A DNA stretch of 64,000 bases from Spirochaetota bacterium (GTDB lineage: Bacteria > Spirochaetota > UBA4802 > JAFGDQ01), in contig JAZDKB010000041.1 in NCBI GenBank assembly GCA_043803405.1, forward strand, positions 1-64,000, given 5' to 3'. Position numbers and translations under genes: made by a program. Below, piece after piece: positions 24,246-45,224 of the stretch; the first letter of the stretch is position 1; every line of letters begins with the position of its first letter. A model generated the notes under the pieces. It did no database searches. It was not told the DNA's origin and saw only the letters and a program-made list of their open reading frames with translations.

Positions 24246-24343
24246 ATTTTCAGTATAAAGCAAATGAAAAAATATCTTAAATAATTATCTTGACAAAAAT
24301 TAAATAAATAACGAATAGAGTAACAGGTATTATAACATAATAT

Positions 24344-24509: not shown

Positions 24510-24573
24510 CAGAGAGCTGCATTTCCTTCGTGAGTATAAGGAAGCTCATTTACATTACGAGGCAAAAAAACGG

Positions 24574-24609
24574 AATCCTCGGACATTAAGTGTCCGGGGA
24601 TTTTTTTTT
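24574..24609 (+). terminator. Riboswitch expression-platform terminator
   Basis: AATCCTCGGACA-TTAAG-TGTCCGGGGATT followed by a T run, between aptamer and CDS. Confidence 0.85.
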
Positions 24610-24753
24610 GGCCTGAAATGCAAAGTTGTTCGGAGAATAACGCGCACAAAAACGGGAATATTGCCCATGGAGGATAGAGATACGGGATTTAGTTTTCAAT
24701 TATCAGATTTAAAGAATATTTTTCATTAAACATTATTTTCAGGAGAATTAAAA

Positions 24754-28355: not shown

Positions 28356-28390
28356 TGTTTATCTCTCCTGTTATATGTTTATAAAATTAT

Positions 28391-29107
28391 TTATTCTTCA
28401 AATTTTTGTTTAAGATATTTAGCAATATTCTGCGAAAGATATCTTGCCTGCGGCTCAATATCCGTTTCGCCAGGCACCTGGACATTCTCTGCAAAAAGAA
28501 CCTGGGAATTTTCCACATCGATTATCTTCGACGAAATGATAAGCTCATGCCCAAGCTTGCCAACAGCGCCTACAAGGATAAGATTTACTTTCTTCCCTTT
28601 TCTTTCGTTATCAAGTTTAATCACATAATCATGTCCCAGCAGTTCAACCAGTTCATTCGCTATTAAATCCGTTACCCTTTCGGATAATTCGCTGTCATTA
28701 TTCCGCGACATTAAGCGCCCAATGCCAAGCCTGTATTTCTGCACTAATGAGAATCCTTTTGCACTTCCGGTATTCTCTCCTGTTGTTTGCTGTTTCATAG
28801 TTTGTCCCTTTGCCATATTGTATGCTAAATAAGATGCCCCGCCTGCGGCAGAAATCCCTGCTGCTGTTATTGATGCCCAGGCTATTGCCTTGCTGAAAGA
28901 AAGTGACAGCCCGTAGCCTTTTTTTCTAAATCCGAAATATATCAGCAGAATGAAGCTGTAAACAAGACCGGATGCACCGAGCTTTTTTAAGCTCGAAACC
29001 AGGGCTTTTTTCTGCGAACCGGAAACATGCTGCTGCACGTGTTCGGGAATTTCTTCGGTGAATCTGAATTTTATTAAAAGTTTATTAAAGGCCTGTATGT
29101 CATTCAT
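28391..29107 (-). CDS. Membrane-anchored putative anti-sigma factor with C-terminal CsgG/FlgO-like domain
   Basis: 4-nt overlap with the ECF sigma gene; hydrophobic segments; ILVGAVGKLG..ISSKIIDVENSQVLFAE resembles the neighbouring CsgG-like domain. Confidence 0.55.
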   Translation of the reverse strand: MNDIQAFNKLLIKFRFTEEIPEHVQQHVSGSQKKALVSSLKKLGASGLVYSFILLIYFGFRKKGYGLSLSFSKAIAWASITAAGISAAGGASYLAYNMAKGQTMKQQTTGENTGSAKGFSLVQKYRLGIGRLMSRNNDSELSERVTDLIANELVELLGHDYVIKLDNERKGKKVNLILVGAVGKLGHELIISSKIIDVENSQVLFAENVQVPGETDIEPQARYLSQNIAKYLKQKFEE

Positions 29108-29625
29108 AATAGATCCTCTATATTGCGTATGCCTTTTTCATTCAGGTTCTGTATTACTCTTTTCACGATCTGGCCGTATTTATACTGAACCTGCCTTTTG
29201 CTTAAACCCAGAAGCCTGCCTGCTGTCGTATAGCTGTAATTATGAAACGCAATCAGTTCAATAATTGCCCTGTCAGTATCATCCAGGGCGGCTTTTGCAA
29301 TAGAGTCGCTTATTATTATTCGCAGGTCCCTGAAACCGTTCACGAAAGTCAAACTTACATCCTGGAAAACATCGTCAATATTTATTCCCTCCGGATGTTT
29401 GTCCCTGTAATATTTTAAAACGATATTCCGCAATGTGCCGAATATCCATTTGCGTACATTTAATATCTGCTCCAGGTTGTTATACAGCGCGATGAAAACC
29501 TCCTGGCACAGGTCTTCGGCATCCTGCATATTGCCTGTTTTTGTGTAAATCGTGTTAAATACAATATGATAATACTCCGTGAATATTTCCGTATATTTAT
29601 CTCTCTTTGATTTCCCGCCCGGCAT
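29104..29625 (-). CDS. ECF RNA polymerase sigma factor
   Basis: DAEDLCQEVF region 2, KWIFGTLRN, region 4 HTH SYTTAGRLLGLSKRQVQ. Confidence 0.88.
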   Translation of the reverse strand: MPGGKSKRDKYTEIFTEYYHIVFNTIYTKTGNMQDAEDLCQEVFIALYNNLEQILNVRKWIFGTLRNIVLKYYRDKHPEGINIDDVFQDVSLTFVNGFRDLRIIISDSIAKAALDDTDRAIIELIAFHNYSYTTAGRLLGLSKRQVQYKYGQIVKRVIQNLNEKGIRNIEDLL

Positions 29626-29800: not shown

Positions 29801-30142
29801 ATGCCGACTAAAGACCTTAACCGCTACTGGATATATATACTGGAATGCAAAAACGGCAAATATTATACAGGTTATACAAATGATTTAGCCAGGCGATATT
29901 TGCTCCACATAAACGGAAAAGGCGCAAAATTTACAAGGACATACAAGCCTGTCGGGGTCGCGCAAAGCTGGAAGCTTACAGGCACAAAGGCGCAGGCAAT
30001 GAAAGTCGAAGCGTTTATAAAGCAGAAGCCGAGAGCATTTAAAGACGGGCTTGTTAAAAATCCGCGCGCTTTAAAGCGCGCTTTGTTTATTAAGTTCGGA
30101 TATGAATTTAAAATAATTAAGAGTGCGTTCCAAAACCTCTGA
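29801..30142 (+). CDS. GIY-YIG nuclease (UPF0213-like)
   Basis: YWIYILEC..YYTGYTNDL.RR..H..GKGAKFTR, EAFIK. Confidence 0.9.
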   Translation: MPTKDLNRYWIYILECKNGKYYTGYTNDLARRYLLHINGKGAKFTRTYKPVGVAQSWKLTGTKAQAMKVEAFIKQKPRAFKDGLVKNPRALKRALFIKFGYEFKIIKSAFQNL

Positions 30143-30270
30143 AACGCAATAAAAGATATTCAGACATAACAAATATTATTTTAATTTTTGAGGACTATCT
30201 GAGGCCGACAGGCATGGATGCCTTAGTGCCGGGTGCAGGCAGGAGGCCTGTTTGCACCCGGTCGAAGGAT
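30121..30270. mobile_element. MITE-like element (GAGTGCGT end) with nested GGA-loop hairpins; right end not recognisable
   Basis: GAGTGCGTTCCAAAACC end; TTTTAATTTTTGAGGACTATCTGAGGCCGA matches the core of the 55081 element; hairpins 30210-30223 and 30229-30261. Confidence 0.6.
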
Positions 30271-30355
30271 TAAACTCAAAAAACATTACCATGAACAATA
30301 AAAAAACAGTGAATTCCCTTCCAGCGCTTCAAAAGATTTAACTGCATGGCTGGAA

Positions 30356-30571
30356 TCAAAAAATATTAAAGGTAATGAACAACCCGCCGCAAGCAGCATA
30401 CGCTCTATTTCTGAAAATTCTAAGATCTTCTTCGTCTTCCGCTAACTCTCTCCGAATAGCATTATCAACTATTTCAGATATTGATTTAGATGTTTCAGCA
30501 GCTTTAATTTTTAGAACTTTATGTATATCCGGATCAAAATATACTGTTGCACGTTTATTTAATGCTGACAT
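30356..30571 (-). pseudogene. Orphan CopG/RHH antitoxin, C-terminally truncated
   Basis: KRATVYFDPDIHKVLKIKAA..SISEIVDNAIR..EDEEDL; tail replaced by unrelated sequence read through a CCCGCCGCAAGCAGC hairpin remnant; no toxin follows. Confidence 0.6.
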
Positions 30572-31007: not shown

Positions 31008-32429
31008 TCAACTCTTAATATACTTATTATAAAGCCCATCGTAATTCCGGATAAGGTCTTTTTTATTGTAGAATTTTAAAGCTTTTTCCCTGTTCTTTTT
31101 TACAAGCTCGCGTGTATATTCTTTTTCCGTATACAGCTTACTGATCCCGGACGCGATTTTTTCCGAGTCCTTGGGATCAGCTAAAAGATCTTCGTCATAA
31201 TCAAGCATTTCCGGCACATTGCCCACGCGTGTGGATATTACAGGAATGCCGGCAAGGTAAGCTTCGATAATTACGAGCGGCTGCGCTTCTCGTATGCTCG
31301 AAAGAACCATAACATCTAAAAAAGAATAATAGGTACGCACGTCGGCCTTGCCTGTAAAAATTATTTTATCTTCCAGCTTAAAATTCTCAACGAGCTGGAT
31401 GCATTCTTCGTAGTAATTCTCATCCTCATCCTGGGGGCCGATTATGTAAAATTTTACTTTCGGGATTGTTTCGGATACTATCTTGGAAGCAATAATAAAT
31501 GCTTTAACATCCTTAATCGGAACTACGCGTCCGACAAATCCCACTGAGTATTCTTCACGCGATTCGATCTTTAAATCCAGAAAGCGCTCAACATCAATGC
31601 CATTCGGGACAACAAGAGTTTTCTCTTTGCTCGCGCCCTGTGAAATCTGGATATTCCTGTTGTGCTCAAAAAGCGCTATAGAAAGATCCGCGTACTCGTA
31701 AGTTATCCTGCTAAGATCGTTAAATATGTTTATCCATAAGTCGCGCTGGTATCCCTTTACCCATTTGGCGCGCTTAATATCGATTTCTCTTTCTTTATTG
31801 TACAGGCCGTGCTCTGTGAGGATTACAGGCTTATTGTACATTATCTTCGCTATTGCTGCAACAAGCCCGGCGTATCCTGTGGAAATTGTATGATAAAGGT
31901 CAGCCTGTGGAATTTCCCATGTAAGTATTTTCAGCATATATTCATGCGACGACAGCCATGCCCAGTAATAATCGGAAAAAGGATAAAGCGGGTTATGCAT
32001 GCTGCCGTATTCACACGCCATATCCCAGGCATCGGAAGTTTCAACAAGGTCGCGGAAATCGTATTTCTTTTCCTGCATCTTTTTTAAAATCCACGAAAGC
32101 CCGGAAAATTTTTTTTCGGACATCATTTCGCCGTGAAATTCTTTTATCTTTTTAAAAAATTCTTTATCTGTTTTTTTCTTTTTATGCTTTTTCTTTTTTG
32201 TCAAAATCCTGTTTTCAAGGGATATTACATTTTCGGGAAATTTATATTTAAGCTCGTTGTCCTCGTCTGCCGAGATTGCCAGCACTATGAAATTAAAGTT
32301 CGTAAGGCCGGATATCATATCCTGTATCCACGACGAAACGCCTCCGGTAATATACGGATACGATCCTTCGGCAATAATGCATATTGTCTTTTTTTGCGGA
32401 TCAGGTTTGTTTATATATTCAATAGCCAT
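31008..32429 (-). CDS. pelF: GT4 glycosyltransferase PelF (DUF3492 + GT-B)
   Basis: EGSYPYITGGVSSW, DLYHTISTGYAG, LTEHGLYNKER, GRVVPIKD, EAQPLVIIEA; likely start ATG 32429 overlapping the upstream gene. Confidence 0.92.
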   Translation of the reverse strand: MAIEYINKPDPQKKTICIIAEGSYPYITGGVSSWIQDMISGLTNFNFIVLAISADEDNELKYKFPENVISLENRILTKKKKHKKKKTDKEFFKKIKEFHGEMMSEKKFSGLSWILKKMQEKKYDFRDLVETSDAWDMACEYGSMHNPLYPFSDYYWAWLSSHEYMLKILTWEIPQADLYHTISTGYAGLVAAIAKIMYNKPVILTEHGLYNKEREIDIKRAKWVKGYQRDLWINIFNDLSRITYEYADLSIALFEHNRNIQISQGASKEKTLVVPNGIDVERFLDLKIESREEYSVGFVGRVVPIKDVKAFIIASKIVSETIPKVKFYIIGPQDEDENYYEECIQLVENFKLEDKIIFTGKADVRTYYSFLDVMVLSSIREAQPLVIIEAYLAGIPVISTRVGNVPEMLDYDEDLLADPKDSEKIASGISKLYTEKEYTRELVKKNREKALKFYNKKDLIRNYDGLYNKYIKS

Positions 32430-33307
32430 TGATAAATTATTAACTCGGATATTTCGTCTAATTCGATCTCGGTCTTTGATGCAAGCGTTGCGAGAGTAAA
32501 AACATTCTGATAATCGCCAGTGTTGTAATAACACTCTGCAAGTCTTAAAAGCAAATTTCTGTCTTTGCCGTTTTTTGAAAAAAGATGAGTAAATATCTTT
32601 ATTGCGCTTTTGTTTTTTCCCATCAGCATATAACAACTACCCAGGGCAGTCAAAATTCGTTTATTATTTTTATTTTCAATCTCATGTGCAGTTTTCAAGG
32701 CAGTTTCGCTTTCTTTAAGGTAAAATATCTGTATCAGGCGCTGCCCGTTAAGAAGCCCGGCAAATTCAAAATAAAGCAGGCCTAATAAATAATATAAAAT
32801 ATAAATCCGGGTAGATTTATTATCTTTTTCCTTTTCTTTGATCTTCGATTTTATCCGCTGTATTTTTTCGATAAATGCATTCTCAATTGTATTTAATCCT
32901 TCTGCAGCATAAAGCGCGATCTCAGGATTTGGGTCTTTGATTAAATTACGCAGTATAGAAACAGAATGCAGATTCGGATTTGTTGTAAGTTTCTGCTGTG
33001 ACAAAAGGCGCGTGATCTCGTCAATGTCCTGTGCTTCGTCCGCGAGAGGCCGAAGAGAAGTCGCCATTTCAATAAAAAATTCAATGCCCGTTATTCCTCT
33101 TTCAAATGATTTGCGAAGCCCACGCTGAGTTACCGGAACATACTGATCCGATTTTTTTAATTTGCGGAAAAAGTCGAATGGATCGGAATACGTAAAGATA
33201 TTGTCTGCTGCCGCTGCATCAGTCTCCTTACTGCCGGGCAAGGGATGCGTTTGCAATACCACTTTTGAGATGGCGAAAGAATCGAATATTTTAGCTCGTA
33301 ATGTCAT
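32411..33307 (-). CDS. PelE-like HEAT/TPR scaffold protein
   Basis: ILRNLIKDPNPEIALYAAEGLNTIEN resembles the PelE motif; TPR helices; lies between pelD-like and pelF. Confidence 0.65.
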   Translation of the reverse strand: MTLRAKIFDSFAISKVVLQTHPLPGSKETDAAAADNIFTYSDPFDFFRKLKKSDQYVPVTQRGLRKSFERGITGIEFFIEMATSLRPLADEAQDIDEITRLLSQQKLTTNPNLHSVSILRNLIKDPNPEIALYAAEGLNTIENAFIEKIQRIKSKIKEKEKDNKSTRIYILYYLLGLLYFEFAGLLNGQRLIQIFYLKESETALKTAHEIENKNNKRILTALGSCYMLMGKNKSAIKIFTHLFSKNGKDRNLLLRLAECYYNTGDYQNVFTLATLASKTEIELDEISELIIYQWLLNI

Positions 33308-34767
33308 ATCTTCTGCATCTCCAGAAGATTCTCTGCAAGCATCATTATGTCTTCCTCGGACTTCAGGTTAGGACGCATACTGCTATAGCCCAGAATTATT
33401 TCCGGATGCATGGAAATTTCGCCTATTTTGAATTCTTCACTATTTATTTTTTCAATAAAAGTGAGACAAAGCATGGCAGCTCCGTCATAGTCCATGTTCG
33501 GAAGAATCAGGGAAAACTGGAATCTTCCTTTATACTGGAATATCATAGCGTCTTTTTTACTTTCACGCTTAACAAGCTGGGCCACAGTTCTTAACAGCTC
33601 GAGCACTTCATTGCCCGAATATTTTTCTAAAAGTTCTTCGCTGTTGCTAAGCTCGAAAACTACAAAGGATAATTTTGTGTTGTAAGAAAAAGCTTTCCCA
33701 AACTCTTCTTTAAGAGCTGAAAACATTTCGTCAATAGACGGCAGGCCTGTAACTTCATCGACTTCGCCTTTCCTGCTTATTTCGTCAAACCGTATTGCAT
33801 TGCCTATTATCGGAGCAGCAAGATCGGCGATCATCATAATTAACTGTTCGGAATATAAATTATACTTAACAAAAGGCATTTCCTCTATATTTATTATACC
33901 CCAGACCAGGTTGCCAATGTTTACCGGCACTGTTATAATATTATTCTTTTTATCTATCTCAAGAAGATTGGCGTGCTTTTGCAAAAGCTTTACTGAAAAC
34001 ATTGCATTATTGCGCGCCACCCAGCCTGTAATATTATCCGAGTCGGAAATCTTTCTGTCTTCGGCTTTAATCCCGCTCCATCCATGAGTAGCCAGCAAAA
34101 GTAGCGCTTTTTCCTCGCGATTGTACTGCCACAGCGAGCATTTTCCCGCTCCCGAAAATTTAACTATTGCTTCAAGTATATTAGGGTATATTTTTTCCAT
34201 ATCAAGTGAATTGAGTGATATCATAGTAGAGTAGAGAGAAATAAGCGAATTCTGCTGGCCTAAAATCCTGTCCTGGTACTCTTCATTTACCATGGAAATT
34301 GCCTTGAGTTCACGATCCAGCTTGTTCTCCTTTTCTTCCAGTTCTTCGATTTTATTTTTATGCTTATTAAGAATAACACCAAGCGTATCCCGTATTTCGC
34401 CGAATAAAACCGCAAAGATAAAACTCATAAACAGAAACTGCATTACTTCATTATAATTTATGCCGAAAAAATACTGAATAAAGTATTCCGTGCCTCCAAA
34501 AATATCGTATTTATAATTTATAACAGCAAAATTAATTACGATTCCGGTTATGGATACCAATAAAGCGATAATGCCGGATATTTTTCCGTAAAAACACGAG
34601 AAAAAGATTATTATAATAAAATAAGGATTATAGCCGGTATGTAAAAGGCCGGGGTCTTCGGGGTAATAAAAATAATTTACTATACTTAAAACGACAATCG
34701 CTGTTATTATTTCGCCGGGATAAATTTTTTTAAACAACACAGCCATATTTGGAATCATTATTTTCAT
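33304..34767 (-). CDS. PelD-like membrane protein (4 TM, coiled coil, GAF, degenerate GGDEF)
   Basis: NPY..II.F.SCFYG..SG TM block, FGEIRD, coiled coil, GAF with IEEMPF, DEVTGLP and a GGDEF fold lacking the catalytic motif. Confidence 0.75.
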   Translation of the reverse strand: MKIMIPNMAVLFKKIYPGEIITAIVVLSIVNYFYYPEDPGLLHTGYNPYFIIIIFFSCFYGKISGIIALLVSITGIVINFAVINYKYDIFGGTEYFIQYFFGINYNEVMQFLFMSFIFAVLFGEIRDTLGVILNKHKNKIEELEEKENKLDRELKAISMVNEEYQDRILGQQNSLISLYSTMISLNSLDMEKIYPNILEAIVKFSGAGKCSLWQYNREEKALLLLATHGWSGIKAEDRKISDSDNITGWVARNNAMFSVKLLQKHANLLEIDKKNNIITVPVNIGNLVWGIINIEEMPFVKYNLYSEQLIMMIADLAAPIIGNAIRFDEISRKGEVDEVTGLPSIDEMFSALKEEFGKAFSYNTKLSFVVFELSNSEELLEKYSGNEVLELLRTVAQLVKRESKKDAMIFQYKGRFQFSLILPNMDYDGAAMLCLTFIEKINSEEFKIGEISMHPEIILGYSSMRPNLKSEEDIMMLAENLLEMQKI

Positions 34768-34952
34768 TCTTTGAAATTTCCTGAATTTGTATGCTCTAAG
34801 AAATAACTACGCCGGCGCTAAAAAAAAACCGCGTACACCTAATATAGTATCGATCAATTAAAAAATATTATTCAGTCAATATTATATTCCCTGATTCCGC
34901 TGATACTAAAATAATTATCCTGCCCCATGTCTGCCTGCCCTGAATTAAAATC

Positions 34953-34981
34953 TTGCATTTCTCCGGTTTTAATGCGATAAT
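34953..34981 (+). promoter_or_regulatory. Sigma70-type promoter for the export/modification operon
   Basis: TTGCAT, 17 nt, TGc-GATAAT (extended -10). Confidence 0.45.
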
Positions 34982-35040
34982 ACGTTGAAAACTAAATCGT
35001 TAAGGAGGGAATTCATATACGTTTATATTGCTAAATTTTT

Positions 35041-35169
35041 CAATTTTTGCCGGATGCCGTGATATAAAGTCGTAAAGAAAAATACCGATATTTCCGTTTA
35101 TAAATGACAAGGATATATTGGTTATTTTTTCGGTTTAGCGTCACGGCATCCGGTAATTGATTTACCGGA
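35041..35169 (+). other. Long imperfect hairpin with an overlapping alternative hairpin in the 5' leader
   Basis: CCGGATGCCGTGA (35050-35062) / TCACGGCATCCGG (35141-35153) with further inner pairing; competing TCCGGTAA/TTACCGGA (35149-35169). Confidence 0.6.
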
Positions 35170-35215
35170 ATTAGATCAAATTCACACAAATAAAATAATA
35201 TAAACGGATATAACT

Positions 35216-36307
35216 ATGAGTATTGCCAAAAATTATTTTTTTTTAACATTGTGCCTTCTGTTTTTTTTCCAGGCATGCGGACAGATAAAAAGCGATAAAG
35301 GCAATGTTGAAAACCTCCTCGAAAAGGCCTCAAAGAACATAGCAACCGCAGAATCCCTTTCCGACATTGCGCGAAAAAACAACCTCATGAAAACTGCTGA
35401 ATCCCAGGTGCAGGAAGCGGATACATTAAGCGTAAAACTTACTGAGATGCAGGGCAAAGTCAACTCTGTATACGCGTATTTGTATTTTGTAAACGGGGAT
35501 TACACTAAGGCAAAAAAATTTGCGGAAAAGAATAAAGATAAAAATGATCCTTTTATGACTGTTTTAAATACGCGTATTTCCCTTAAGGAGAAAGGAAGTG
35601 AATTTGCACGCAACGCGATCGGCAGACTGGAGCCTGTTTTAACAACATATCCCCGCAATGCAATGGCGCGTCTAACCCTGGGTGACTGCCATTTCCTGCT
35701 GGGCAATTTTCAGGACGCTCAGAAACAGTATACTGAAGTGCTAAAAATTGGCGAAGCATTCCAGGTGCTGGCTGCAGACAGGCTTGAAGTAATGGACCAG
35801 ATAAGGCGCACCGGCGTCGATACAGGCAAAGTACAGAATGTCATTTTGTCTTTATACGTACGAAGAGATGAGGCTGCGGACATTTTAAAGCGCATATATA
35901 ATGCGGACAGGTATCTTAAATTCGGCAAGACAGGAGAAAAAAATTTTAAGGATATTATAGATTCTTTGTACGCAGATTCGATCCGCATTTTAAGAGAGAA
36001 AGGTTTTTTTACTTATATAAGCGGGGACAATTTCGAGCCTTATAAAATAGTAACACGAAGCGAGATCGCAATGATAGTGGAAGACTTTATTGTGCTTCAA
36101 AGCGGGAATACCTCGCTTCGCACTCGTTTTTTAAAAGATGCTAAATCAACTATTAAAGGTATTGATGTAAAAGATCCTTATTACAATGCAATAAAAACTG
36201 CCATAGATGCAAAAGCGATGGTTATTTCTCTGGACGGATCAATTAATCCTCTGGAACCTGTCAGCGGTCTTGAGACAATAGGCATATTCAGTAAACTAAT
36301 AAAGTAA
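35216..36307 (+). CDS. Lipoprotein with TPR repeats and SLH-like motifs
   Basis: Lipobox FQAC; TPR (ARLTLGDCHFLLGNFQDAQKQY); FKDI..YADSI..L.EKG...F.P.K.VTRSE SLH-like motif and a second copy. Confidence 0.7.
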   Translation: MSIAKNYFFLTLCLLFFFQACGQIKSDKGNVENLLEKASKNIATAESLSDIARKNNLMKTAESQVQEADTLSVKLTEMQGKVNSVYAYLYFVNGDYTKAKKFAEKNKDKNDPFMTVLNTRISLKEKGSEFARNAIGRLEPVLTTYPRNAMARLTLGDCHFLLGNFQDAQKQYTEVLKIGEAFQVLAADRLEVMDQIRRTGVDTGKVQNVILSLYVRRDEAADILKRIYNADRYLKFGKTGEKNFKDIIDSLYADSIRILREKGFFTYISGDNFEPYKIVTRSEIAMIVEDFIVLQSGNTSLRTRFLKDAKSTIKGIDVKDPYYNAIKTAIDAKAMVISLDGSINPLEPVSGLETIGIFSKLIK

Positions 36308-36325
36308 AGGCTTCCGGTACATCTC

Positions 36326-36364
36326 AGGGGCTTTATCCTTTAAGCCCCGCTTCGGGTTGGGGCA
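36326..36364. repeat. GC-rich REP-like palindrome
   Basis: GGGGCTT-TATCCTTT-AAGCCCC followed by GCCCC..GGGGC. Confidence 0.4.
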
Positions 36365-36441
36365 AAGAACAGTTAATATTTCCTGAAACATAAATAATCT
36401 TAATACACATAAAATAATTTTACATCTAACAGAGAAAAAAC

Positions 36442-39400
36442 ATGAAAACAAAATCCTCTTCGTTAAAACTCATTGTTTTAACAGTATCATTCGCATTGAT
36501 TATACCTTTGCTTTTGATAAACGTGCTGGCGCAGAAACAAAAAAAGCAGGCGAATCCTGAGCAAAAAAACCCTGCCGTTAAAATATCATACAAAAATTAC
36601 ATATGGATTGAAGGCGAAAACTCGGTTGATACGAATTTTTCAAAAGAGAAAACGTATAACTTTTTCTGCAGCGACAGGTTCGCTTTGCAGCTTTCCAAGG
36701 ACGCAGACCCTGCATCCGATAAGGGTTATTACGCTACGTATGTTTTTTACGTTTCGGGCACCAAGGCATTCGACTTCTGGATGGGATGCACGCCTCCGGG
36801 CTCGAAAAACGCAGATAAACCCGGCTATGCTTCGCCATTCGACTGGAAAATCGACAGCAGCGATTTTAAAAACGCTTCGTCGGAAAATACATTTGTTAAG
36901 GAATATTACGCAATCGGGGGATATTACTGGACAAAGATTTCGACAGGAATTCTTACTGCAGGGAAGCACACTCTTACGATACGCGTAAACCAGAAAAGGT
37001 CGAGCGGATGGGATTATTTTTTCTATATAGACGCGATAGTTTTCATTCCGGCTTACTCAGATTACCTTATGCCTCTTATGAGCTTTCCTGAAGTTGCTTC
37101 GAAAAACTTCAGCGATAAGGGAAAAAGCATATTATTCGAAGACATTGATTATTACAAACAGCAGATAAGGCAAAAACCGAATGACCGTGAAATGGTATTT
37201 TCACTGCTTCAGGTCTATACATGGCTTTATGAATACGAAAAATCAATGGATTTATGCAGGGAGTACCTGAAAAAAAATCCGAAGGATATTGAAATACGTC
37301 TTCTTCTGGCTTCGAGCCTGGCATGGGCAGACAGGCTTGATGAAGCCATAAAAGAGTATAACAATATAATCGCCATTGATAAAAACAACATAACTGCGCG
37401 CAAGCTTCTGGCCGTTCTTGCCGGATGGAACAACCGCTACGATGAATCAATTAAAAATTACAGGGAGATTGTTGAGATTGACCGCATGAACATCGATGCT
37501 TATATTTCTTTAGCAACTCAATATTCCTGGAAAAACGAGCCGACCAAGGCTTTTGAAATTTTCAAAAAAGCAGAGTCTATTGCGCCTAAAAACATAGAAG
37601 TGCTTTACGCCCTTGGGGACAATTACTTCTGGATTGGAAAAACCTTTGAAGCAAGCCAGCAGTATAAAAAGATAATCTCCATAGACGAAAAACAGATCGA
37701 AGCGTATAAAAAACTGGCTAAACTGTATCTTTCAATGGACCGCAAAGAAAGCGCGGATGATATTATGGACGAAGCGTCGCGCGTTGTAAATATATACCCT
37801 GAACTCGCAGGGTTTTCGCTGGATATAACAAGCGAGCTCAATAAAGACACGGTAGCTACTCTTGGAGAGTACAGAAAAGCGCTCGAAAAAAATCCTGACG
37901 ATATTGAAACACGAAAGAACCTTATAGACTCATACATCTGGAATAAAATGGACGCTGAAGCTGCTAAAGAATACAACAATCTTTTGAACGTTAAAATTGT
38001 TAAGGGCATAGAAAAAACAGACGAAAGAATCGCGAATCTGGCGATTGAATCAGTAAAGCTGAGACAGGCAGCGCCTGTACTTGCAGGAATTAAAGAAAAG
38101 CTCGCGGAAATTGCAGAAAGATACAAAAAAGCGGAATCCTATATATCCGGAGGCAAAGATCTTCCTGAAGGACTTAACGAAAACAAAATTAAAAACGATC
38201 TGCTTCTGACCTTAAGCCTGGTAAAAAAGGTCGATCTTTTTGAGCAGAATCTTTCATATTTTAACGATGTTATCAGTTATTATGACAGGGACATACAAAG
38301 CTATTTAACGCAAAAGAACGCGTTAAAATGGGAACCCGACAAAAAGAGAATTGAAACCCAGGCAGATGAATCGGAAAAGATGTTCCCTCAGGATTACAGG
38401 CCGAAAAAAGTTACAGGTCTCCTTGAATATTTATATGGCAGCCTGTCCGTCTCGAAATCGAAATTCGATTTCGTATATAAAGTACAACCCGAAAAATCAT
38501 TCCCTGTTTATGTTTTGGCTGCTTCCGAATTATCCGATCATTCTGCAACAGGAAATTTAATCGCTGATATGCAAAAAAATAAAAACTTTAAGGCATATAC
38601 TGAAAATCTTAAAAAACTGCAGGATTTTTTAAAAGCTCTGCAGGCAGAACCTGCTCCTGAAAACAAAATGGTCGACATAAAGTCAATGGCATCTGAAATA
38701 AGCAAACAATCGCAAAACGCATTGAGCCGCCTTGAAGAGCTTATAAGCGAGAAAAAAGAAAAGCTGAAAACAGCAAAAAAAACAATGCAGTATATGTATG
38801 AAAAAATGTTCCTGGATACTGAAATTGATAATGTGAACATTTACAATGAAATTGCGAACTATAATTTAAACAAAGGAAATCAGAAGGATGTTCTGGACTA
38901 CTACGGCAGAATCCTTGCGGTTCAGCCTTTAAATGTTGAGATAAATTACAAGACAGGCGCTCAAAATCAGGCTCTGGGCTACTGGAAGTCAGCAATGGGG
39001 AATTACGAGCTCTGCATCAACAATGACCCGGACAACCAGAACGCACGCGCTGCGCATTATGATCTGCAAAAGGAGCACTCGCCTGCGCTTAAGAACGAGT
39101 TTTCCTATTTCTCCGATCAATACGACAAAGGACAGGACTATAAGTCCACAAGAATCAATAACCTATTAATGTTCACATATCCGCTTAACAACTGGTTAGC
39201 GCTTAATGCCGGGTATGGATTCAGAAAAGTTTCTGATACTGGCGGAACTGCGATTCCCGGCAAAGCACTATCACTAACCGAGGGTTCATTCACCAGAAAT
39301 ACTGCAATAGCCGGTACGGATATTAATTTCGTGCCATTGGGTGTAAAATTATTTTTGGATTTTAAAGGGCATAGTTATAAAGGCAAAATTAGCCATGAAA

Positions 39401-41583
39401 ACAAACTGCCAACCGGTGATCCTGACTATATTGATATGGCTACCAAATATAATTCAGATATTAGTTATAGTTCTATTAATTATTCAGCAGGAATTGATTT
39501 TTTAAAATTAGTAAAAGGTCTACAGTTAAGATTTATATATGCTTTTGATGACGAGGCGGATTTAACACTGTCATTAAAGACCAAACTTGGATCTGCCATT
39601 ACATCTAAAAGCATTCAGGGAATAGTAAATCTCTCATTTTCAGAATATTCCTTTCCTTTAAGCGACAGGCTTTCTCTTTCTGACACTATTAAATACAGCA
39701 TGCTGTCGGATAGCAATACAAGAACATCCACTTATAACCAGCTTACATTTACAACATTAAAGATTCCTTCTTATGGTATTGATCTTAATATGAACGCCAT
39801 AGGTGCTTATGATGCTTCTAAATTTACAGAATATAGCGGAACAGAACGAATTAAACATAATAACGTCAGCAGCCTGCCGTATTGGGCTCCTGATAAAATT
39901 TATACTTATGGCGGAGGCGTGTCTTTCAAACAAAGCATAGAAAACTTTCTTAAAGGAAAATTTTCTTATGAATTATATTTTAATTGTACAAAGGATTATG
40001 TTAAAGGAAATCAGACAAAAGTAGTGGAAGATCAATTTATTACTGATGAAAATAATTATGATCAGACTAATTACACTCCTGGTATCAGACTCACTCATGC
40101 CTGGGATAAAATTGATTATTATATTAATTATTCTTATGCTTATTCCAAATCCAATCTTGAAAACGCAAAACCGTACACTTCCCAGTCGGTTGAATTCGGC
40201 CTGCAGGGAAAATTCTATACAGTATATTCGCCGACAGGAGCAGGCGCAAAGAGCATTGCAATGGCAACAGCAAGCCCAACAATGATCACGCCCGACGGCG
40301 ACGGCAAAGATGACTATGCAATATTCTCGCTTACAGGCTTTGACGAAAAAGGCATAACAAGCTGGGAACTTGAAATATTCAGCAACTCAGGCGAAAAAGT
40401 AAAAAGCATTACGGGACAGGGAACACCGCCAGCATCAGTAAAATGGGATGGAACTGACAAGGCAAACAGCCCTCTTCCCGAAGCTGTCTACTATTATCAG
40501 ATCACAATCGTAAACAGCGCAGGCGAACGGAATTCTTCCAAGAAGGAAACCGTGTTCGTTTCGCGAAAGGCAAAGGCCATTGCACCGGAATTATCTTACA
40601 CGGCTTTTTCTCCTAACGGGGACAATACAAAAGACACTGTAAGCGTTGAATTCAAGGCTACGGACAGAGAGCATGTGTCAAGCTGGACTCTGTATGTAAT
40701 GGACAGACCTAAAACATACAAGCCGGAAAAAGACAGGGAAAGACGCGTAGTCCGCACAATAAAAGGATACGAATTTTTGCCATCCTCGGTTGAATGGGAC
40801 GGCAAAGACAATAACGGGAAAGTGCTCCCGGACGGAGATTATCATATTTTTATTAATGTAAAATATAATGATGAAAAAGATATTACTTCTCCGGATATAA
40901 AAGCAACTATAATCACAAAAGCGCAGATAAGAATAAGCACAAATACCGAGACAATTATTCCTGCAAAAACAATGCTCCGCATAATACCGGAATCATCGGA
41001 CAAAGACCTCGCTTCATGGAAAATCTCGTTTTATTCGATTGATGATAAATTAATCAAGATGATACAGAGCAGCGGGAAACTGCCCGAAATAATTGCATGG
41101 AACGGCACTGATGAAAACAGCAATATTGTATGCTACAACATGCCTGTAAGTGCTGTTATGGAAATCACGGATAAAGCTGGCAACAAAGGCGCATCGAATA
41201 AAGTTAATCTGTGGCTCGGCTTCCTCGAAGAAAAGCAGAAAGACTTTACTCTTATTACGCTTTTTGACCAGGGCATAATGCATAAGCGCAAGGACGAGAA
41301 CCTGACACAGACAGGAAAGGATGTTGTTAAGCGACTTATAACAGAACTCCAGAAATATAAAAAGTCTAAAAAAATACGAATAATCGGCCATACATCTTCA
41401 GACGGCTCAACAGATGCGAATCTGGAACTTTCCAAAACACGCGCAAGGAACCTCGGCCAGAGTATCAAAGACGGCTTAAAAATAGAAACAGGCGTTATCT
41501 TTATAAATGGCGTTGGAAAGTCGCAGCCGTCAAAAATTAACGACAGAAAACTGGATGACAGATATGAAATCGAAATATATTAA
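36442..41583 (+). CDS. Giant multidomain exporter candidate: beta-sandwich, TPR array, beta-barrel, FlgD-Ig repeats, OmpA-like C-terminus (PelB-like)
   Basis: Signal peptide; TPRs of LA..L.W..R..EA type; aromatic beta-strand region ending EFGLQGKF; TPDGDG/FSPNGD and W(D/N)G(T/K)D Ig repeats; IIGHT..LS..RA..GVG OmpA motif. Confidence 0.7.
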   Translation: MKTKSSSLKLIVLTVSFALIIPLLLINVLAQKQKKQANPEQKNPAVKISYKNYIWIEGENSVDTNFSKEKTYNFFCSDRFALQLSKDADPASDKGYYATYVFYVSGTKAFDFWMGCTPPGSKNADKPGYASPFDWKIDSSDFKNASSENTFVKEYYAIGGYYWTKISTGILTAGKHTLTIRVNQKRSSGWDYFFYIDAIVFIPAYSDYLMPLMSFPEVASKNFSDKGKSILFEDIDYYKQQIRQKPNDREMVFSLLQVYTWLYEYEKSMDLCREYLKKNPKDIEIRLLLASSLAWADRLDEAIKEYNNIIAIDKNNITARKLLAVLAGWNNRYDESIKNYREIVEIDRMNIDAYISLATQYSWKNEPTKAFEIFKKAESIAPKNIEVLYALGDNYFWIGKTFEASQQYKKIISIDEKQIEAYKKLAKLYLSMDRKESADDIMDEASRVVNIYPELAGFSLDITSELNKDTVATLGEYRKALEKNPDDIETRKNLIDSYIWNKMDAEAAKEYNNLLNVKIVKGIEKTDERIANLAIESVKLRQAAPVLAGIKEKLAEIAERYKKAESYISGGKDLPEGLNENKIKNDLLLTLSLVKKVDLFEQNLSYFNDVISYYDRDIQSYLTQKNALKWEPDKKRIETQADESEKMFPQDYRPKKVTGLLEYLYGSLSVSKSKFDFVYKVQPEKSFPVYVLAASELSDHSATGNLIADMQKNKNFKAYTENLKKLQDFLKALQAEPAPENKMVDIKSMASEISKQSQNALSRLEELISEKKEKLKTAKKTMQYMYEKMFLDTEIDNVNIYNEIANYNLNKGNQKDVLDYYGRILAVQPLNVEINYKTGAQNQALGYWKSAMGNYELCINNDPDNQNARAAHYDLQKEHSPALKNEFSYFSDQYDKGQDYKSTRINNLLMFTYPLNNWLALNAGYGFRKVSDTGGTAIPGKALSLTEGSFTRNTAIAGTDINFVPLGVKLFLDFKGHSYKGKISHENKLPTGDPDYIDMATKYNSDISYSSINYSAGIDFLKLVKGLQLRFIYAFDDEADLTLSLKTKLGSAITSKSIQGIVNLSFSEYSFPLSDRLSLSDTIKYSMLSDSNTRTSTYNQLTFTTLKIPSYGIDLNMNAIGAYDASKFTEYSGTERIKHNNVSSLPYWAPDKIYTYGGGVSFKQSIENFLKGKFSYELYFNCTKDYVKGNQTKVVEDQFITDENNYDQTNYTPGIRLTHAWDKIDYYINYSYAYSKSNLENAKPYTSQSVEFGLQGKFYTVYSPTGAGAKSIAMATASPTMITPDGDGKDDYAIFSLTGFDEKGITSWELEIFSNSGEKVKSITGQGTPPASVKWDGTDKANSPLPEAVYYYQITIVNSAGERNSSKKETVFVSRKAKAIAPELSYTAFSPNGDNTKDTVSVEFKATDREHVSSWTLYVMDRPKTYKPEKDRERRVVRTIKGYEFLPSSVEWDGKDNNGKVLPDGDYHIFINVKYNDEKDITSPDIKATIITKAQIRISTNTETIIPAKTMLRIIPESSDKDLASWKISFYSIDDKLIKMIQSSGKLPEIIAWNGTDENSNIVCYNMPVSAVMEITDKAGNKGASNKVNLWLGFLEEKQKDFTLITLFDQGIMHKRKDENLTQTGKDVVKRLITELQKYKKSKKIRIIGHTSSDGSTDANLELSKTRARNLGQSIKDGLKIETGVIFINGVGKSQPSKINDRKLDDRYEIEIY

Positions 41584-44218
41584 AAAAAAACCTGCCCCCC
41601 AAACCCCCCGAAGGGGGGCTTTAAAAACATTCACGGATAGATTAATTTTTAAATCCCTCTCAGGGGGATATAGGAGGCATCATTTTGTCTTATTATTTCT
41701 TTTTGCTTTCATTTTCATATTTTTAATCACCTCCCTTTCCGCAGCTCAGTACGGTGACACAGTTCTCGCGCTGTATAAATCATCTGAAGGCTTTTCCGAA
41801 AATAATAATCCAGTAAAAACATACCTCGAGCCTGAAATTAAAAAGCTCGGATTAAAAACAGAATACCGCAGTTTCGAAAGCGGAATGCCTCCCAGGGATT
41901 CTTTAAACAATATACGCGCTATCGTTACATGGTATAACGGCGGAGTTGTTGAAAATAAAAAAACAGGGCTTGAATATATCGAATTTCTTAAAAGCGCGGT
42001 TGATTCAGGCTGCAAACTTGTAATTATTAATTCGTTCGGAGCGTACGGTTACAATGAAGGCGGAATCGAAAAATGGGATCTTATAAACGATATTAATATA
42101 TTATATAAAAAACTGGGATTCGTTTTTAAAGATTCATTCTGGACGAACGATCCTGCAAAAATCCGTATCACGGAAAAAGACAGCTTTATGACCGAAAAGG
42201 ACGCAAAACAGGATGTGAACGTATCGAAACATTACCAGCAGATCGTTCCACAAAGAAACGATGTTGCAACATATCTAACAATAAAAAGAACAGATAATGT
42301 CAAGGGTCTGGGAGACGGTAATTCCTCCGTAATACTGACTTCCAGGAACGGCGGTTTCGCGCTCGAAACTTACGTGCTTTCAGGTAACAAGCTTATGCTA
42401 AACACGTCCGAATTCCTGCGCAAATCACTATTCTTTGACGATGGAATACAGGATGTGTGTGTTGTGATAGGCGATATAAAAAACAAGGGGCCTGTCATTG
42501 AAAATTTTAAATACGCGTTCAAATATGCAAAAATCCGAAATATAATTATTGAAGCCGAGCAATTGCGTACAATGATTTCCGGCGATCTTCTGCAATATAA
42601 TGTATTAATTATTGCAACTGATACTGTTAATAATATTCCGTTCAATACAATAAAAGATTATGTAAACAAAGGCGGGAACTTAATATTCGCAAAATCAGCT
42701 GACCTGAGCAGTCAGTTCAAAGAACTGGTTGGAGCAACCTCATACACTCAAAGCAGTTCATTTAATGAGGGATTCGCGATCAACACGGAATTCTGCATGA
42801 ACAAAGTAGCGTTCAAAGGGGAAAGAATATCAATAACAGTCAGAAGAGCATCGCTGGCAAACTGCAAGGTTCTCGCTGTTGTACTCGATCAGGATGAAGT
42901 AAAAAACTATCCTGTGTTATGGGAGACTTCCCTCGGAAAAGGGAAAATATTATACTGGAATACTGATATATTATTAAGCGGAGATAAGGGATACAGGGGA
43001 ACAATTATTCAGAGCATACATTATATATACAGCGGCTTTGTCAGCGGAATAGCAAATATAGGCATGATGATGATTGACGATTTGCCTGCGCCTTTATGGA
43101 ACATCAATTATAGGGAATACAGAATAAATTATTACAACAATCAGTTAAAAAGCGCATCAGACCCGACCCAGAAAGAAAAGATCAGCTCAATTATTAAAAA
43201 TCTTAGTAATTACTCCAATATCACGGATAACAATTTTATTAAGAATATCTGGATCAATGATATGGAAGCCTTGGAAAAACAGTTCGGCTTTAAATATACG
43301 GCTTATATGATCTTTAATTATAATGATAAAGTTGTACTCGATAAAAATGAAGATACATATCCTATAGTAGATTTTTATTTATCCGGAGATAATCTTCCTA
43401 TTCAAATGGGATTAAAAGTCCTGAATGCGGGATGGGAACTCGCACTGCATGGTTATAATCATCAGTCTCTTACTACAAAAAAGCCCGATCATTATGATTC
43501 ACTTCCCTGGCCGGATAAAAATTCAATGGTAAAAGCATTGACTTCCGCAAAAAATGAATGGATATCGATTTTCGGAGAGAACACCCTGCCTTTTTCCTAT
43601 GTAGCGCCGCATAACATAATTGACAATGCCGGGCTTTCTGCAATTGCCGAAACATTTCCTTCAATAAACGTAGTTTCGACTTTATATGTTAGCGACCAGG
43701 GAGAAATCGAACAGGAATTTGAATGGACAAAAGACCGCAGATTTTTTCAGCTCCCAAGAATAAGTTCCGGCTATATTGTAAATCCTTCCAACAAATATTA
43801 TATATATGATGCAATACACAATTTCGGCATAGTCAGCCACTTTATTCATCCGGATGACGTTTTTGACGAAGGCCGCTCTTTTGGCTTCGCAGGCTGGAAC
43901 GCCATGAAATCAGCTTTTATTGACGAGTTTAACCAGGTTAAAAAATGCCTGCCGTCAATCAGATGGATGACCTCAAAGGACGCGTTTGAAGAATTTCAGT
44001 TTTACAATGCAGCTTCCATAAGAGTAAAAGAATCCGGTAAAACGATAATAGTCGAATCAGCGGACGGATCGGACCGATACCTGTATTTCAGAATACGTTT
44101 AAAGAAAGGACAAAAAATCAAGACCGCACAGAACTGCCAGATTGTTAACACGAATAATGAAAGCGGGGATGTAATTTTAAAGACAACAGAGCATATTTCA
44201 AAGATTATACTGAATTAA
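41564..44218 (+). CDS. DUF2194-type polysaccharide deacetylase (PelA-deacetylase-like)
   Basis: IDDLPAP, ELALHGYNHQSL, YVAPHN, HFIHPDD CE4-like metal motifs; ATG 41564 overlaps the upstream gene's end. Confidence 0.8.
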   Translation: MKSKYIKKKPAPQTPRRGALKTFTDRLIFKSLSGGYRRHHFVLLFLFAFIFIFLITSLSAAQYGDTVLALYKSSEGFSENNNPVKTYLEPEIKKLGLKTEYRSFESGMPPRDSLNNIRAIVTWYNGGVVENKKTGLEYIEFLKSAVDSGCKLVIINSFGAYGYNEGGIEKWDLINDINILYKKLGFVFKDSFWTNDPAKIRITEKDSFMTEKDAKQDVNVSKHYQQIVPQRNDVATYLTIKRTDNVKGLGDGNSSVILTSRNGGFALETYVLSGNKLMLNTSEFLRKSLFFDDGIQDVCVVIGDIKNKGPVIENFKYAFKYAKIRNIIIEAEQLRTMISGDLLQYNVLIIATDTVNNIPFNTIKDYVNKGGNLIFAKSADLSSQFKELVGATSYTQSSSFNEGFAINTEFCMNKVAFKGERISITVRRASLANCKVLAVVLDQDEVKNYPVLWETSLGKGKILYWNTDILLSGDKGYRGTIIQSIHYIYSGFVSGIANIGMMMIDDLPAPLWNINYREYRINYYNNQLKSASDPTQKEKISSIIKNLSNYSNITDNNFIKNIWINDMEALEKQFGFKYTAYMIFNYNDKVVLDKNEDTYPIVDFYLSGDNLPIQMGLKVLNAGWELALHGYNHQSLTTKKPDHYDSLPWPDKNSMVKALTSAKNEWISIFGENTLPFSYVAPHNIIDNAGLSAIAETFPSINVVSTLYVSDQGEIEQEFEWTKDRRFFQLPRISSGYIVNPSNKYYIYDAIHNFGIVSHFIHPDDVFDEGRSFGFAGWNAMKSAFIDEFNQVKKCLPSIRWMTSKDAFEEFQFYNAASIRVKESGKTIIVESADGSDRYLYFRIRLKKGQKIKTAQNCQIVNTNNESGDVILKTTEHISKIILN
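41593..41679. repeat. REP-like composite palindrome inserted in frame in a CDS
   Basis: C6-GAA-G6 and ATCCCTC-TCA-GGGGGAT hairpins enclosed by TGCC..GGCA; same layout as 40-132. Confidence 0.6.
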
Positions 44219-44228
44219 GTAAAAATAT

Positions 44229-45224
44229 TTATTTATTTCTTTTCTCAAAGTAGTATGCGGCATCCAGAACATCCAGGTAAACGCCGTCAAAACCAGCATC
44301 CAGAATTTTTTTAAGATAACTGTCCGTAAACCCTGTGCCGTCCACGCGGCCTGTAATTATCTCTTTCCATTCATCCATCCAGTATTTTACTTTATAATTG
44401 CCTTTCCATTCTGGATTTTCCCGTTCGAGAAATAGAGGCCGGCTCTGCTTCCACTCCTGTTTCCAGTAATACCTGTAATCCTCCGCTTCCCCAATTGAAA
44501 GATAAGCAAGAACAAGACGCTTTTTACCAGAAGGCTTTTTCTGCAGCAAAGCTACCTGGTTACGCGTAAGCATTTTACCCCAGAAAAATGCGTCTATCAC
44601 TATCAGATCGTGCCAGGTTTTTTTTAAAGCGCTTAAATAAGCATCAACTGAACGAAACTGAGACGCATTAAGCAAATAAAGAAAGTTTTTAGCTTTATGA
44701 ATGTCCGTGACTGCATCGTCGTTCCTGCTAAAAATCCATGAAGGAATTTTTGTCAGTTCCCGGTTAGCCTGAAATGAAATAAATCCGTGTTTATTATTCA
44801 GTGTGAAAGAATTAAACGCCTGTTTTTTGTCAGCCACATAATCGATTACAAGAATTGCCTTGGCGTTATTTTTCATTATTTTAAGATAATTCAAAAAATA
44901 ATCTGTAGTGTCTGCGGCTGTCCTTTTCCCGTCTTCCGAGTGCCCGTAAAAAAGCTCTTCGCACCCGGCAGCGTCGATTGACGCGAGATACGATTTCGCA
45001 ATCCCGCCGTCCGCTTTACTGTTATAGGTGATCAGGTCCATCGCATTCTGAGGCACTACAGCAAACGAAGGATTTATCTTTTTTGCCCTTGCGCTTATAA
45101 GCTCAACAAACTTACGCATTTCCTCGCGGCAATCCGGTTTGCTTTGAGCAATTGCCTGTTGTAACAATAAACACAATATTGAAATAACAATTAATGATAA
45201 TTTAATAAATTTATCTGGAGTCAT
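44229..45224 (-). CDS. GH114/TM1410-type endo-alpha-1,4-galactosaminidase (PelA-hydrolase-like), circularly permuted
   Basis: Signal peptide; VPQNA, GCEELF, DLIVID, AYLSIGEAEDYRYYW, GFDGVYLD. Confidence 0.85.
   Translation of the reverse strand: MTPDKFIKLSLIVISILCLLLQQAIAQSKPDCREEMRKFVELISARAKKINPSFAVVPQNAMDLITYNSKADGGIAKSYLASIDAAGCEELFYGHSEDGKRTAADTTDYFLNYLKIMKNNAKAILVIDYVADKKQAFNSFTLNNKHGFISFQANRELTKIPSWIFSRNDDAVTDIHKAKNFLYLLNASQFRSVDAYLSALKKTWHDLIVIDAFFWGKMLTRNQVALLQKKPSGKKRLVLAYLSIGEAEDYRYYWKQEWKQSRPLFLERENPEWKGNYKVKYWMDEWKEIITGRVDGTGFTDSYLKKILDAGFDGVYLDVLDAAYYFEKRNK

Follow-up and report, generated by a model that had tools for sequence, protein, structure and literature searches.

To which kind of Pel machine, if any, does a spirochaete locus belong that joins pelD-, pelE- and pelF-like genes to a giant outer-membrane protein and a Gram-positive-type deacetylase? 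Pel is, to our knowledge, among the most widespread biofilm polymers, and two builds of its machinery have been characterised. The locus lies in a stretch of 64,000 nucleotides, here called the window, from contig JAZDKB010000041.1 of a Spirochaetota bacterium (assembly GCA_043803405.1). The initial annotation had described seven open reading frames (ORFs) there, and all seven were found again at the same coordinates and on the same strands (Table 1). Its proposal that a split hydrolase and deacetylase are paired with an outer-membrane export machine of the organism's own is supported by gene content, fold prediction and synteny.

Judging from its sequence, the locus probably encodes a synthase-dependent system for a Pel-like cationic polymer of α-1,4-linked GalNAc (N-acetylgalactosamine) and GalN (galactosamine), in a form typical of Spirochaetota. 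It is highly probable that the system works like Pel, and on its defining parts it fails membership of both characterised Pel types. What is distinctive is a combination: a PgaA-type pore that carries a carbohydrate-binding module (CBM), tetratricopeptide repeats (TPRs) and a peptidoglycan anchor, a chimeric deacetylase, and the phylum-wide loss of the I-site of PelD. It is a real, conserved and apparently undescribed variant of the Pel system; it is not peculiar to this organism, being conserved across many uncultured spirochaetes.

Conservation of the locus

The main pelF locus was mapped in nine relatives within the class and in one outside it (G labels denote relatives' genomes, G000 being the present genome, which is 94% complete; C labels denote contigs and L labels fetched loci). 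The genes pelG-F-E-D are divergent from those of the lipoprotein, giant protein and deacetylase in six genomes (G001, G003, G006, G009, G015 and G079), a seventh, G122, has all the genes and an epimerase gene in one run, and the contig of G005 is too short to show the layout. The arrangement is not due to chance, since it recurs in relatives, and the plus-strand genes are indeed syntenic with pelDEF. The order of the export trio (lipoprotein, giant protein, deacetylase) was kept in 14 of 14 loci mapped. Within the GTDB class (UBA4802; 122 genomes, those listed all from one order) PelF was matched in 18 genomes and the barrel region of the giant protein in 20, and every PelF-positive genome carries the giant protein. 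The suspected spirochaete-like lineage agrees with the close homologs, whose source name is Spirochaetes or Spirochaetota bacterium.

The export trio could conceivably serve another glycan pathway and merely neighbour pelDEF. In family f6 the trio stands beside flagellar genes, apart from pelDEFG, and deacetylase homologs without pel genes occur in genomes of family f7 and at orphan loci. However, three such orphan deacetylases that were aligned have lost their catalytic residues, no PelF-positive genome of the class is without the giant protein, and in the Spirochaetia and in G122 the giant and deacetylase genes are in one run with pelDEFG or divergent from it. We therefore hold this explanation to be very improbable.

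Concerning the rest of the phylum and beyond, DUF2194 passed the cut-off in 23 of 401 genomes of a phylum sample, and from a scan of named genomes that gave 587 confirmed deacetylase loci the best 80 were retained; 24 of these, together with four further loci, were mapped. Loci of the Spirochaetia (Treponema sp., Rectinemataceae, Spirochaetaceae and others) hold pelDEFG, a long deacetylase, often a hydrolase and no lipoprotein; their giant protein has 1220-1310 residues and ends at the barrel. In Fusobacteriota (Cetobacterium, Propionigenium; L191, L196, L203) the order is hydrolase, pelD, short deacetylase, pelE, pelF and pelG; the PelG there has a C-terminal extension of 240-450 residues and is followed by a gene of 308-328 codons with no Pfam match, which may be the outer-membrane exit. 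In Flavobacteriaceae (L169, L182, L185, L194) a permuted GH191 hydrolase and pelF are followed by a weak match to PelG, another GH114-like gene, a 660-residue protein of unknown type and a DUF2194 deacetylase that continues for about 780 residues, again with no Pfam match, which are possibly TPRs and a barrel.

The exporter and its lipoprotein

The giant protein consists of a signal peptide, a CBM6/35-like domain (residues ~40-225), a TPR/helical region (~225-880), a barrel (~882-1258), an immunoglobulin-like (Ig) part and a C-terminal OmpA-like domain. The description as a TPR/barrel protein thus holds, the TPRs by Pfam and the barrel by folding, and the CBM-like, Ig and OmpA-like domains go beyond it. 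Residues 850-1280 were predicted, from 21 sequences, to form a barrel of 16 strands (pLDDT 77.6, pTM 0.74). Compared with 48,161 chains, this barrel matched best the structure 4Y25 (Z 27.6, rmsd 2.2, 282 residues aligned, 12% identity), which the tool labels 'polysaccharide outer membrane secretin' and which we take to be E. coli PgaA; BcsC (Z 24.0 and 23.9) and PelB (23.4) came after it and the next protein reached 18.5. Foldseek ranked the matches in the same order. All the top structural matches are exopolysaccharide porins, and the barrel of the Treponema sp. homolog fell to a PgaA_barrel cluster of the Atlas (0.95), ahead of PelB (0.89).

When the barrel alignment was searched against Pfam and the PDB, nothing useful came up. 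Its profile matched only 13 proteins among 1.84 billion representatives, and the models PF24604 (PelB barrel) and PF21197 (PgaA barrel) found no match in this genome, so that annotation pipelines will call such loci incomplete. One proteobacterial PelB used as tblastn query had no match in the genome either, the barrel being of the same fold class. The part best conserved is the CBM-like domain at residues 40-225 (65-87% within the class), whose resemblance to the GH115_C/CBM35/CBM6 clusters (0.91-0.93) is a lead.

PelC was not matched by tblastn with three pelC-position proteins (E 1e-4) in this 94% complete genome, where a very distant PelC elsewhere is possible, and none was seen in any mapped locus. 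The place of a PelC-like helper is occupied by a lipoprotein unrelated to PelC, with Cys21 and TPRs, the S-layer homology (SLH) domain being marginal (21.5 bits against a cut-off of 20.8). In each of the 14 mapped loci with the long form of the giant gene, the lipoprotein gene lies directly upstream of it; beside the short form of the Spirochaetia the lipoprotein gene is absent. OmpA-like domains bind peptidoglycan, and since the number of strands is even, both ends of the barrel should be periplasmic, which would place the Ig and OmpA-like domains in the periplasm.

A paralog of the giant protein, of 1120 residues with CBM-like, TPR and barrel parts and no Ig/OmpA tail, is encoded at a pel-less locus in two genomes (G027:C25:45297-48668 and G037:C2:73111-76476). 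The CBM-like domain is also found alone or fused to a PMT_2 membrane protein (L227:8660-9319; L162:930-3122), in genes that are divergent from a long deacetylase gene followed by TPR, pelD and pelE genes.

Deacetylase and hydrolase

The DUF2194 deacetylase was confirmed, with a score of 289.5 bits. Its start was placed by comparison with relatives at about M17-M20 of the ORF, giving a product of about 885 residues, with a hydrophobic N-terminal segment, a mixed α/β domain of the PelA type (ORF residues 78-312) and a PelA_DA core made of CBM114, CE26 and β-rich domains. The sole PDB match by sequence is B. cereus PelA_DA (9ZAU, E 6.4e-54), a protein of ~610 residues with three domains and an N-terminal membrane helix, than which ours is longer by ~270 residues. 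The catalytic motifs of PelA_DA (D-D, HxxxH, P, R and H-x-D-D; PMC13254593) are all present, as D524-D525, H648/H652, P701, R751 and H781-D784. Of 16 aligned homologs, 13 retain them; the three that have lost them belong to genomes in which neither PelF nor PelG was matched, and G027, the source of one of the 13, has no PelF match either.

The extra N-terminal domain of 235 residues folds with a pLDDT of 93.6 and resembles residues 278-486 of P. thermotolerans PelA (9CGY) with Z 22.4 and rmsd 2.7 over 189 residues, the next match standing at 12.8; in Foldseek the same structure ranked first (E 1.6e-8), and HHalign gave 93.85%. On these modelled folds, the deacetylase is a chimera of a Bacillus PelA_DA core and a Pseudomonas-type PelA mixed α/β domain. 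A duplication of CBM114 is a less likely origin of the domain; 9ZAU was absent from both fold searches, whose libraries it may postdate. The initial idea of a system combining diderm and monoderm parts therefore holds even inside this single protein.

With a profile built from long forms and a threshold that we set at 690 residues, the N-domain was detected in 50 of 50 homologs of at least 690 residues; among 70 shorter ones a single protein, itself partial, had it. All named carriers are diderms: Spirochaetota, a metagenome-assembled genome (MAG) of Myxococcales, a MAG of Omnitrophota and, as a weak match, Marinitoga. The short form is found in Fusobacteriota, which are diderms too. A tree of 148 cores places the 69 carriers in one group, which also takes in two truncated proteins and is weakly supported (0.498). 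Searching viral contigs with the deacetylase gave no match, nor did a metagenome scan with the Marinitoga protein alone. At the metagenome loci most similar to the Marinitoga protein (L205-L213), a long deacetylase gene with a weak N-domain match adjoins pelF, and no TPR-barrel gene was seen nearby. The orphan long homologs of family f7 (G023:C4, G028:C2, G038:C22) have lost all catalytic residues and kept the N-domain.

The hydrolase had been assigned to GH114, and it does match PF03537; its closest relative, however, is TM1410, of family GH191, with respect to which it is circularly permuted, its C-terminal half matching the N-terminal half of TM1410 and vice versa (E 1.2e-23), a split also visible in the matches to protein-family models. 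TM1410 is reported as the founder of GH191, with catalytic D156 and E225 (PMC12054363). These map to D318, the predicted nucleophile, and E89, the predicted acid/base, so that E89 comes first in the sequence. Among fetched loci in which both halves were matched, 15 had the permuted order and two the canonical one, in a sample biased by the query. No description of a permutation in GH191/GH114-type hydrolases was found in the literature, and the main text of PMC12054363 is silent on it; the same paper reports that Env-GH191 cleaves Pel.

The synthase core

The GT4 enzyme is PelF. It scored 349.9 bits with the NF038011 equivalog model (cut-off 100) and 254 bits with DUF3492, carries the EX7E motif as EAQPLVIIE, and is 69-80% identical to its relatives and 29-33% to proteobacterial PelF. 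In a tree of 80 sequences, rooted at the midpoint and sampled with a bias toward deacetylase neighbours, it falls within PelF, where the spirochaete proteins form a clade of their own (support 1.0), separate from the group of Bacillota and from the four sequences of Proteobacteria. This suggests an old lineage and not a recent mosaic, and on the same tree we rejected Bacillota or Proteobacteria as recent donors of the core.

The pelE-like gene encodes a true PelE homolog (HHalign 97.85%, E 6.5e-13, aligned over the HEAT/TPR part to five genes, none of them named, that occupy the place of pelE in canonical loci). It has no N-terminal membrane helices, and a conserved soluble segment stands in their place. 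PelD and PelE profiles matched no Pel structure in the PDB.

The usual neighbour of pelF is missing: no pelG was found in the window. A single intact copy (PF16933, 332.6 bits, far above the cut-off) lies elsewhere in the genome, at G000:C50:6307-7683. Is the system then decaying, or mis-assembled, with pelG cut away from pelF? In the relatives pelG comes after pelF in all 10 of the main loci mapped, and here it lies on a contig of ~8 kb between repeats, next to a repeated contig-end element. Against decay, all eight ORFs are intact and PelG is 76% identical to its ortholog in the same genus, a value comparable to the 65-80% found for the other genes. About 150 bp of unique DNA precede pelG, a gap of 264 bp between pelF and pelG already exists in the same-genus relative, and the end of pelF is far from the contig end and followed by unique DNA with a small ribbon-helix-helix gene. 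A DNA sequencing run of low depth has no coverage at the 3' junction of pelF. Decay or mis-assembly is improbable on this evidence. A frameshifted pelG behind pelF was also considered and rejected. The expected pelG site (window 29801-30571) holds a GIY-YIG nuclease gene (+) and the ribbon-helix-helix gene (71 residues, -), for which no toxin partner was seen; short repeats common to other contigs are present at 30150-30260.

Some relatives have a second pelF-pelG pair without pelD and pelE (G015:C74:28158-36236; G009:C15:64722-72785; G079:C17:161346-169524; G001:C45; G003:C83; G006:C1), which was not found in this genome. Its pelF is 38-40% and its pelG 30-33% identical to the genes described here. 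The second PelF is sister to the main spirochaete clade, and the copy of G079 has an internal stop. A convergent HDOD gene follows the pair, mostly with a GAF/HATPase gene, and in three cases glmS is divergent from it. A gene for 1110 residues near the pair of G009 was considered as a second pore and turned out to be a WD40 protein.

PelD and its regulation

The pelD-like gene was likewise borne out as encoding a PelD homolog, with a membrane region, a GAF domain and a degenerate GGDEF domain. Its I-site position reads K-K-D-A, and in a MAFFT alignment RxxD was present at this position in 0 of 16 PelD proteins from Spirochaetota versus 7 of 7 others (Omnitrophota, three Proteobacteria, B. cereus and two Fusobacteriota). 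In B. cereus PelD these residues are reported to be required for binding of cyclic di-GMP (c-di-GMP; PMC7112168). Having lost RxxD, the spirochaete PelD is presumably not activated through the standard c-di-GMP route. The four published PelD classes (PMC7890745) include a streptococcal loss of the whole GGDEF domain and none that retains the domain without the site; ours has the layout of class I without the I-site and functionally fits none of them.

An unlikely, though not negligible, alternative is that the same machine is still controlled by c-di-GMP, through a non-canonical PelD site (the YK or D-x-D-G-A segments, or GAF) or through transcription. Sequences from across the Spirochaetota show good conservation of the degenerate GGDEF domain, both segments included, and c-di-GMP signalling exists in this genome, as shown by 17 ORFs with a GG[DE]EF motif. 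What speaks against this alternative is the loss of RxxD in all the spirochaetes aligned, set beside its retention in every outgroup sequence. A candidate for a protein partner is an HDOD gene that is convergent to pelG in G009, G011, G015, G022 and G079, and to the deacetylase gene in L125 and L128 (the gene was checked by Pfam in G079 and by similarity in the other loci). The ortholog of this genome is unlinked (C9:65410-66318), and the HDOD protein as the switch of PelD is our guess.

Weighing the evidence

Several observations weigh against the reading as a Pel-like system. G011 and G022 carry pelDEFG at one locus and the export trio at another; G027, 95% complete, has an intact deacetylase and giant protein and no match to PelF or PelG, and G057 has the giant protein and no PelF match. 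Counts of co-occurrence overstate the link, since kin are not independent. An epimerase gene adjoins the locus in four relatives (G009, G015, G079, G122), which speaks for the reading, and the present genome is without a close ortholog of it, its best matches being ~30-33% identical; the unlinked pelG, lying between repeats, belongs here too. The barrel is not net acidic (39 D+E against 39 K+R, a crude count over the whole sequence), and PelB is reported to be anionic (PMC12141448). TmGH191 was inactive on galactosaminogalactan (PMC12054363). The hydrolase is found in 17 of 18 PelF-positive genomes of the class and also in 19 of 104 PelF-negative ones, so it should be considered accessory and not specific.

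Part of these data would also fit a machine making a different or cell-bound polymer, such as a sheath or capsule glycan, or one of N-acetylglucosamine or galactose, instead of secreted biofilm Pel. To this fit an exporter with peptidoglycan-anchoring and CBM-like domains and a PgaA-type barrel of neutral balance, a PelF so distant from the proteobacterial enzyme, and the second pelFG pair, found in 5 of the first 40 relatives and in G079, often beside glmS. The core of the deacetylase, however, is homologous to a B. cereus enzyme that acts on α-1,4-GalNAc (PMC13254593), and the hydrolase family has Pel activity. We consider a different polymer rather unlikely, and a Pel-like product remains the preferred reading.

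A working model

The Pel-like system could then operate as follows. In an inner-membrane PelDEFG complex, PelF would polymerise UDP-GalNAc, as its counterparts in Pseudomonas and Bacillus suggest, with PelG supplied from the unlinked gene on contig C50; PelD would not respond to c-di-GMP in the standard way, and its input may be a protein partner, the HDOD protein being the best guess. In the periplasm the deacetylase, with a zinc-dependent CE26 site according to its motifs, would strip part of the N-acetyl groups, and its PelA-type α/β domain would probably dock it on the exporter's TPR scaffold, as in the AlphaFold2 model of PelA, where the mixed α/β domain lies against TPRs 13-19 of PelB (PMC12022489). 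The CBM-like domain of the giant protein would catch the chain, the TPRs guide it and the predicted 16-strand PgaA-like pore let it pass. The Ig and OmpA-like domains would tie the pore to peptidoglycan and, with the TPR-SLH lipoprotein, probably do the positioning job of PelC. The separate permuted GH191 enzyme may trim or clear the polymer and would be dispensable.

More tentatively, the whole may be an old, phylum-specific Pel machine of the Spirochaetota, without c-di-GMP I-site or PelC, in which one protein unites CBM, TPR, PgaA-type pore and peptidoglycan anchor. Its deacetylase would be intermediate between Bacillus PelA_DA and Pseudomonas PelA, making the α/β domain a portable docking module for TPR porins, and PelD would be switched by a partner, probably the HDOD protein. 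This fuller picture is possible, but we would not yet rely on it.

The locus matters as a natural test of three questions. The purpose of PelC can be approached where a peptidoglycan anchor and a lipoprotein of another kind apparently take its place, the role of the mixed α/β domain of PelA where it is grafted onto a Gram-positive-type deacetylase, and the activation of the synthase by PelD where the c-di-GMP site is gone across a phylum and the domain is kept. The product is also a candidate matrix polymer for free-living spirochaetes.

Features of the locus and its surroundings

Start and stop codons overlap among pelD, pelE and pelF, and likewise between the giant gene and the deacetylase gene. 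For pelF, the TTG start proposed by the ORF finder at 32636 (ORF 31008-32636) is too early, as relatives begin at M70. The intergenic region between the two units is unique in the genome, six relatives have the divergent layout around the equivalent region, and from its position it is presumed to carry divergent promoters.

Table 1. Features of the Pel-like locus (positions in the window)
Feature	Coordinates	Strand	Evidence or remark
pelF, GT4 polymerase	31008..32429	-	473 aa from M70; NF038011 349.9 bits
pelE homolog, HEAT/TPR scaffold	32411..33307	-	HHalign; TPR
pelD homolog, membrane region, GAF and degenerate GGDEF	33304..34767	-	Pfam GAF, GGDEF
448-bp intergenic region separating two divergent units (pelDEF and export)	34768..35215	.	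sequence
TPR-SLH lipoprotein, Cys21	35216..36307	+	Pfam TPR; SLH marginal
1713-aa outer-membrane exporter (giant protein), predicted	36442..41583	+	Pfam TPR, CHU_C/FlgD-Ig, OmpA; folded barrel
chimeric deacetylase, DUF2194	41564..44218 (ORF from 41507)	+	DUF2194 289.5 bits
secreted permuted GH191-type α-1,4-galactosaminidase homolog	44229..45224	-	PF03537 GH114 54 bits

Beyond the locus, window 27033-29625 (-) encodes an extracytoplasmic function (ECF) sigma factor, a membrane protein whose FlgO-like domain is weak and a 440-residue protein with a CsgG-like N-terminus. The three resemble a sigma/anti-sigma/outer-membrane unit and stand apart from the pel locus. We considered the CsgG-like, ECF sigma and TonB genes upstream as parts of the system and discarded them, since the main loci of the first relatives mapped had no match to any of them in their vicinity; in G079 a weak CsgG-like match does occur near the locus. 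Upstream of the TonB-dependent receptor gene (24754-26886), positions 24277-24700 may hold a cobalamin riboswitch, judging by eye from position and translated text.

Comparison with known systems

Nothing in print was found to describe this architecture, although the epsSMASH supplement on operon rearrangements and distant homologs may cover it; the epsSMASH preprint (10.64898/2025.12.21.693542) reports 'pel-like' clusters, and pel in 14 phyla. Spirochaetes are unmentioned in its main text, in those of PMC7112194, PMC7112168 and PMC13254593, in two supplementary files of PMC12022489 and in the supplementary files of PMC7112194 other than 13-18. What was found in the literature on a spirochaete pelF/pelG exopolysaccharide was a passing mention, in work on Selenomonas. 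Bundalovic-Torma 2020 lists, in its supplement (PMC7112194), pelF/pelG in Thermotoga and Fusobacterium and not the export machine; these are non-proteobacterial diderms with pelFG and, by our mapping, also with DUF2194 deacetylases. Fusobacteriota differ from our system by a short deacetylase, an extended PelG and a PelD with RxxD. Of the proposed 'third Pel architecture', what stands is an apparently undescribed variant; the phrase itself is too strong, because DUF2194 deacetylases also occur in other diderm layouts, namely in Fusobacteriota, Flavobacteriaceae, a MAG of Omnitrophota and Thermotogota-like loci.

With pelABCDEFG of Pseudomonas aeruginosa (9CGY, PMC12022489; PelBC 9H80, PMC12141448) the locus has in common homologs of PelD, E, F and G, a TPR scaffold with a 16-strand outer-membrane barrel, and a periplasmic deacetylase with a mixed α/β domain (here predicted). 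It differs in that hydrolase and deacetylase are separate genes instead of a fused GH166-CE21 PelA; one proteobacterial PelA gave no tblastn match in the genome, and the α/β domain alone is common to both. Unlike in Pseudomonas, the barrel is nearer to PgaA than to PelB and is joined by CBM-like, Ig and OmpA domains, a TPR-SLH lipoprotein is present and no PelC was found, PelD is without RxxD, PelE is without membrane helices, and the genes form two divergent units.

Bacillus cereus, with pelDEA_DAFG and a separate PelA_H (9ZAU, PMC13254593; PMC7112168; PMC7890745), has the same CBM114-CE26-β-rich core and a separate accessory hydrolase. In contrast to it, our deacetylase has the extra 235-residue PelA-type domain, and its gene accompanies that of the exporter instead of lying within pelDEFG; the hydrolase is of the permuted GH191 type, and an outer-membrane pore is present. 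Compared with GH191 itself (TmGH191/TM1410, Env-GH191), both catalytic residues and both barrel halves are recognisable here, with the order of the halves swapped.

As in PgaA (4Y25, presumably) and BcsC, the barrel fold is preceded by TPRs. Porins of the PgaA/BcsC type are reported to work without a PelC-type ring (PMC12141448). Unlike these porins, our exporter has a CBM-like N-terminus and an Ig and OmpA extension, and it is associated with a GT4 Pel synthase instead of a GT2 enzyme.

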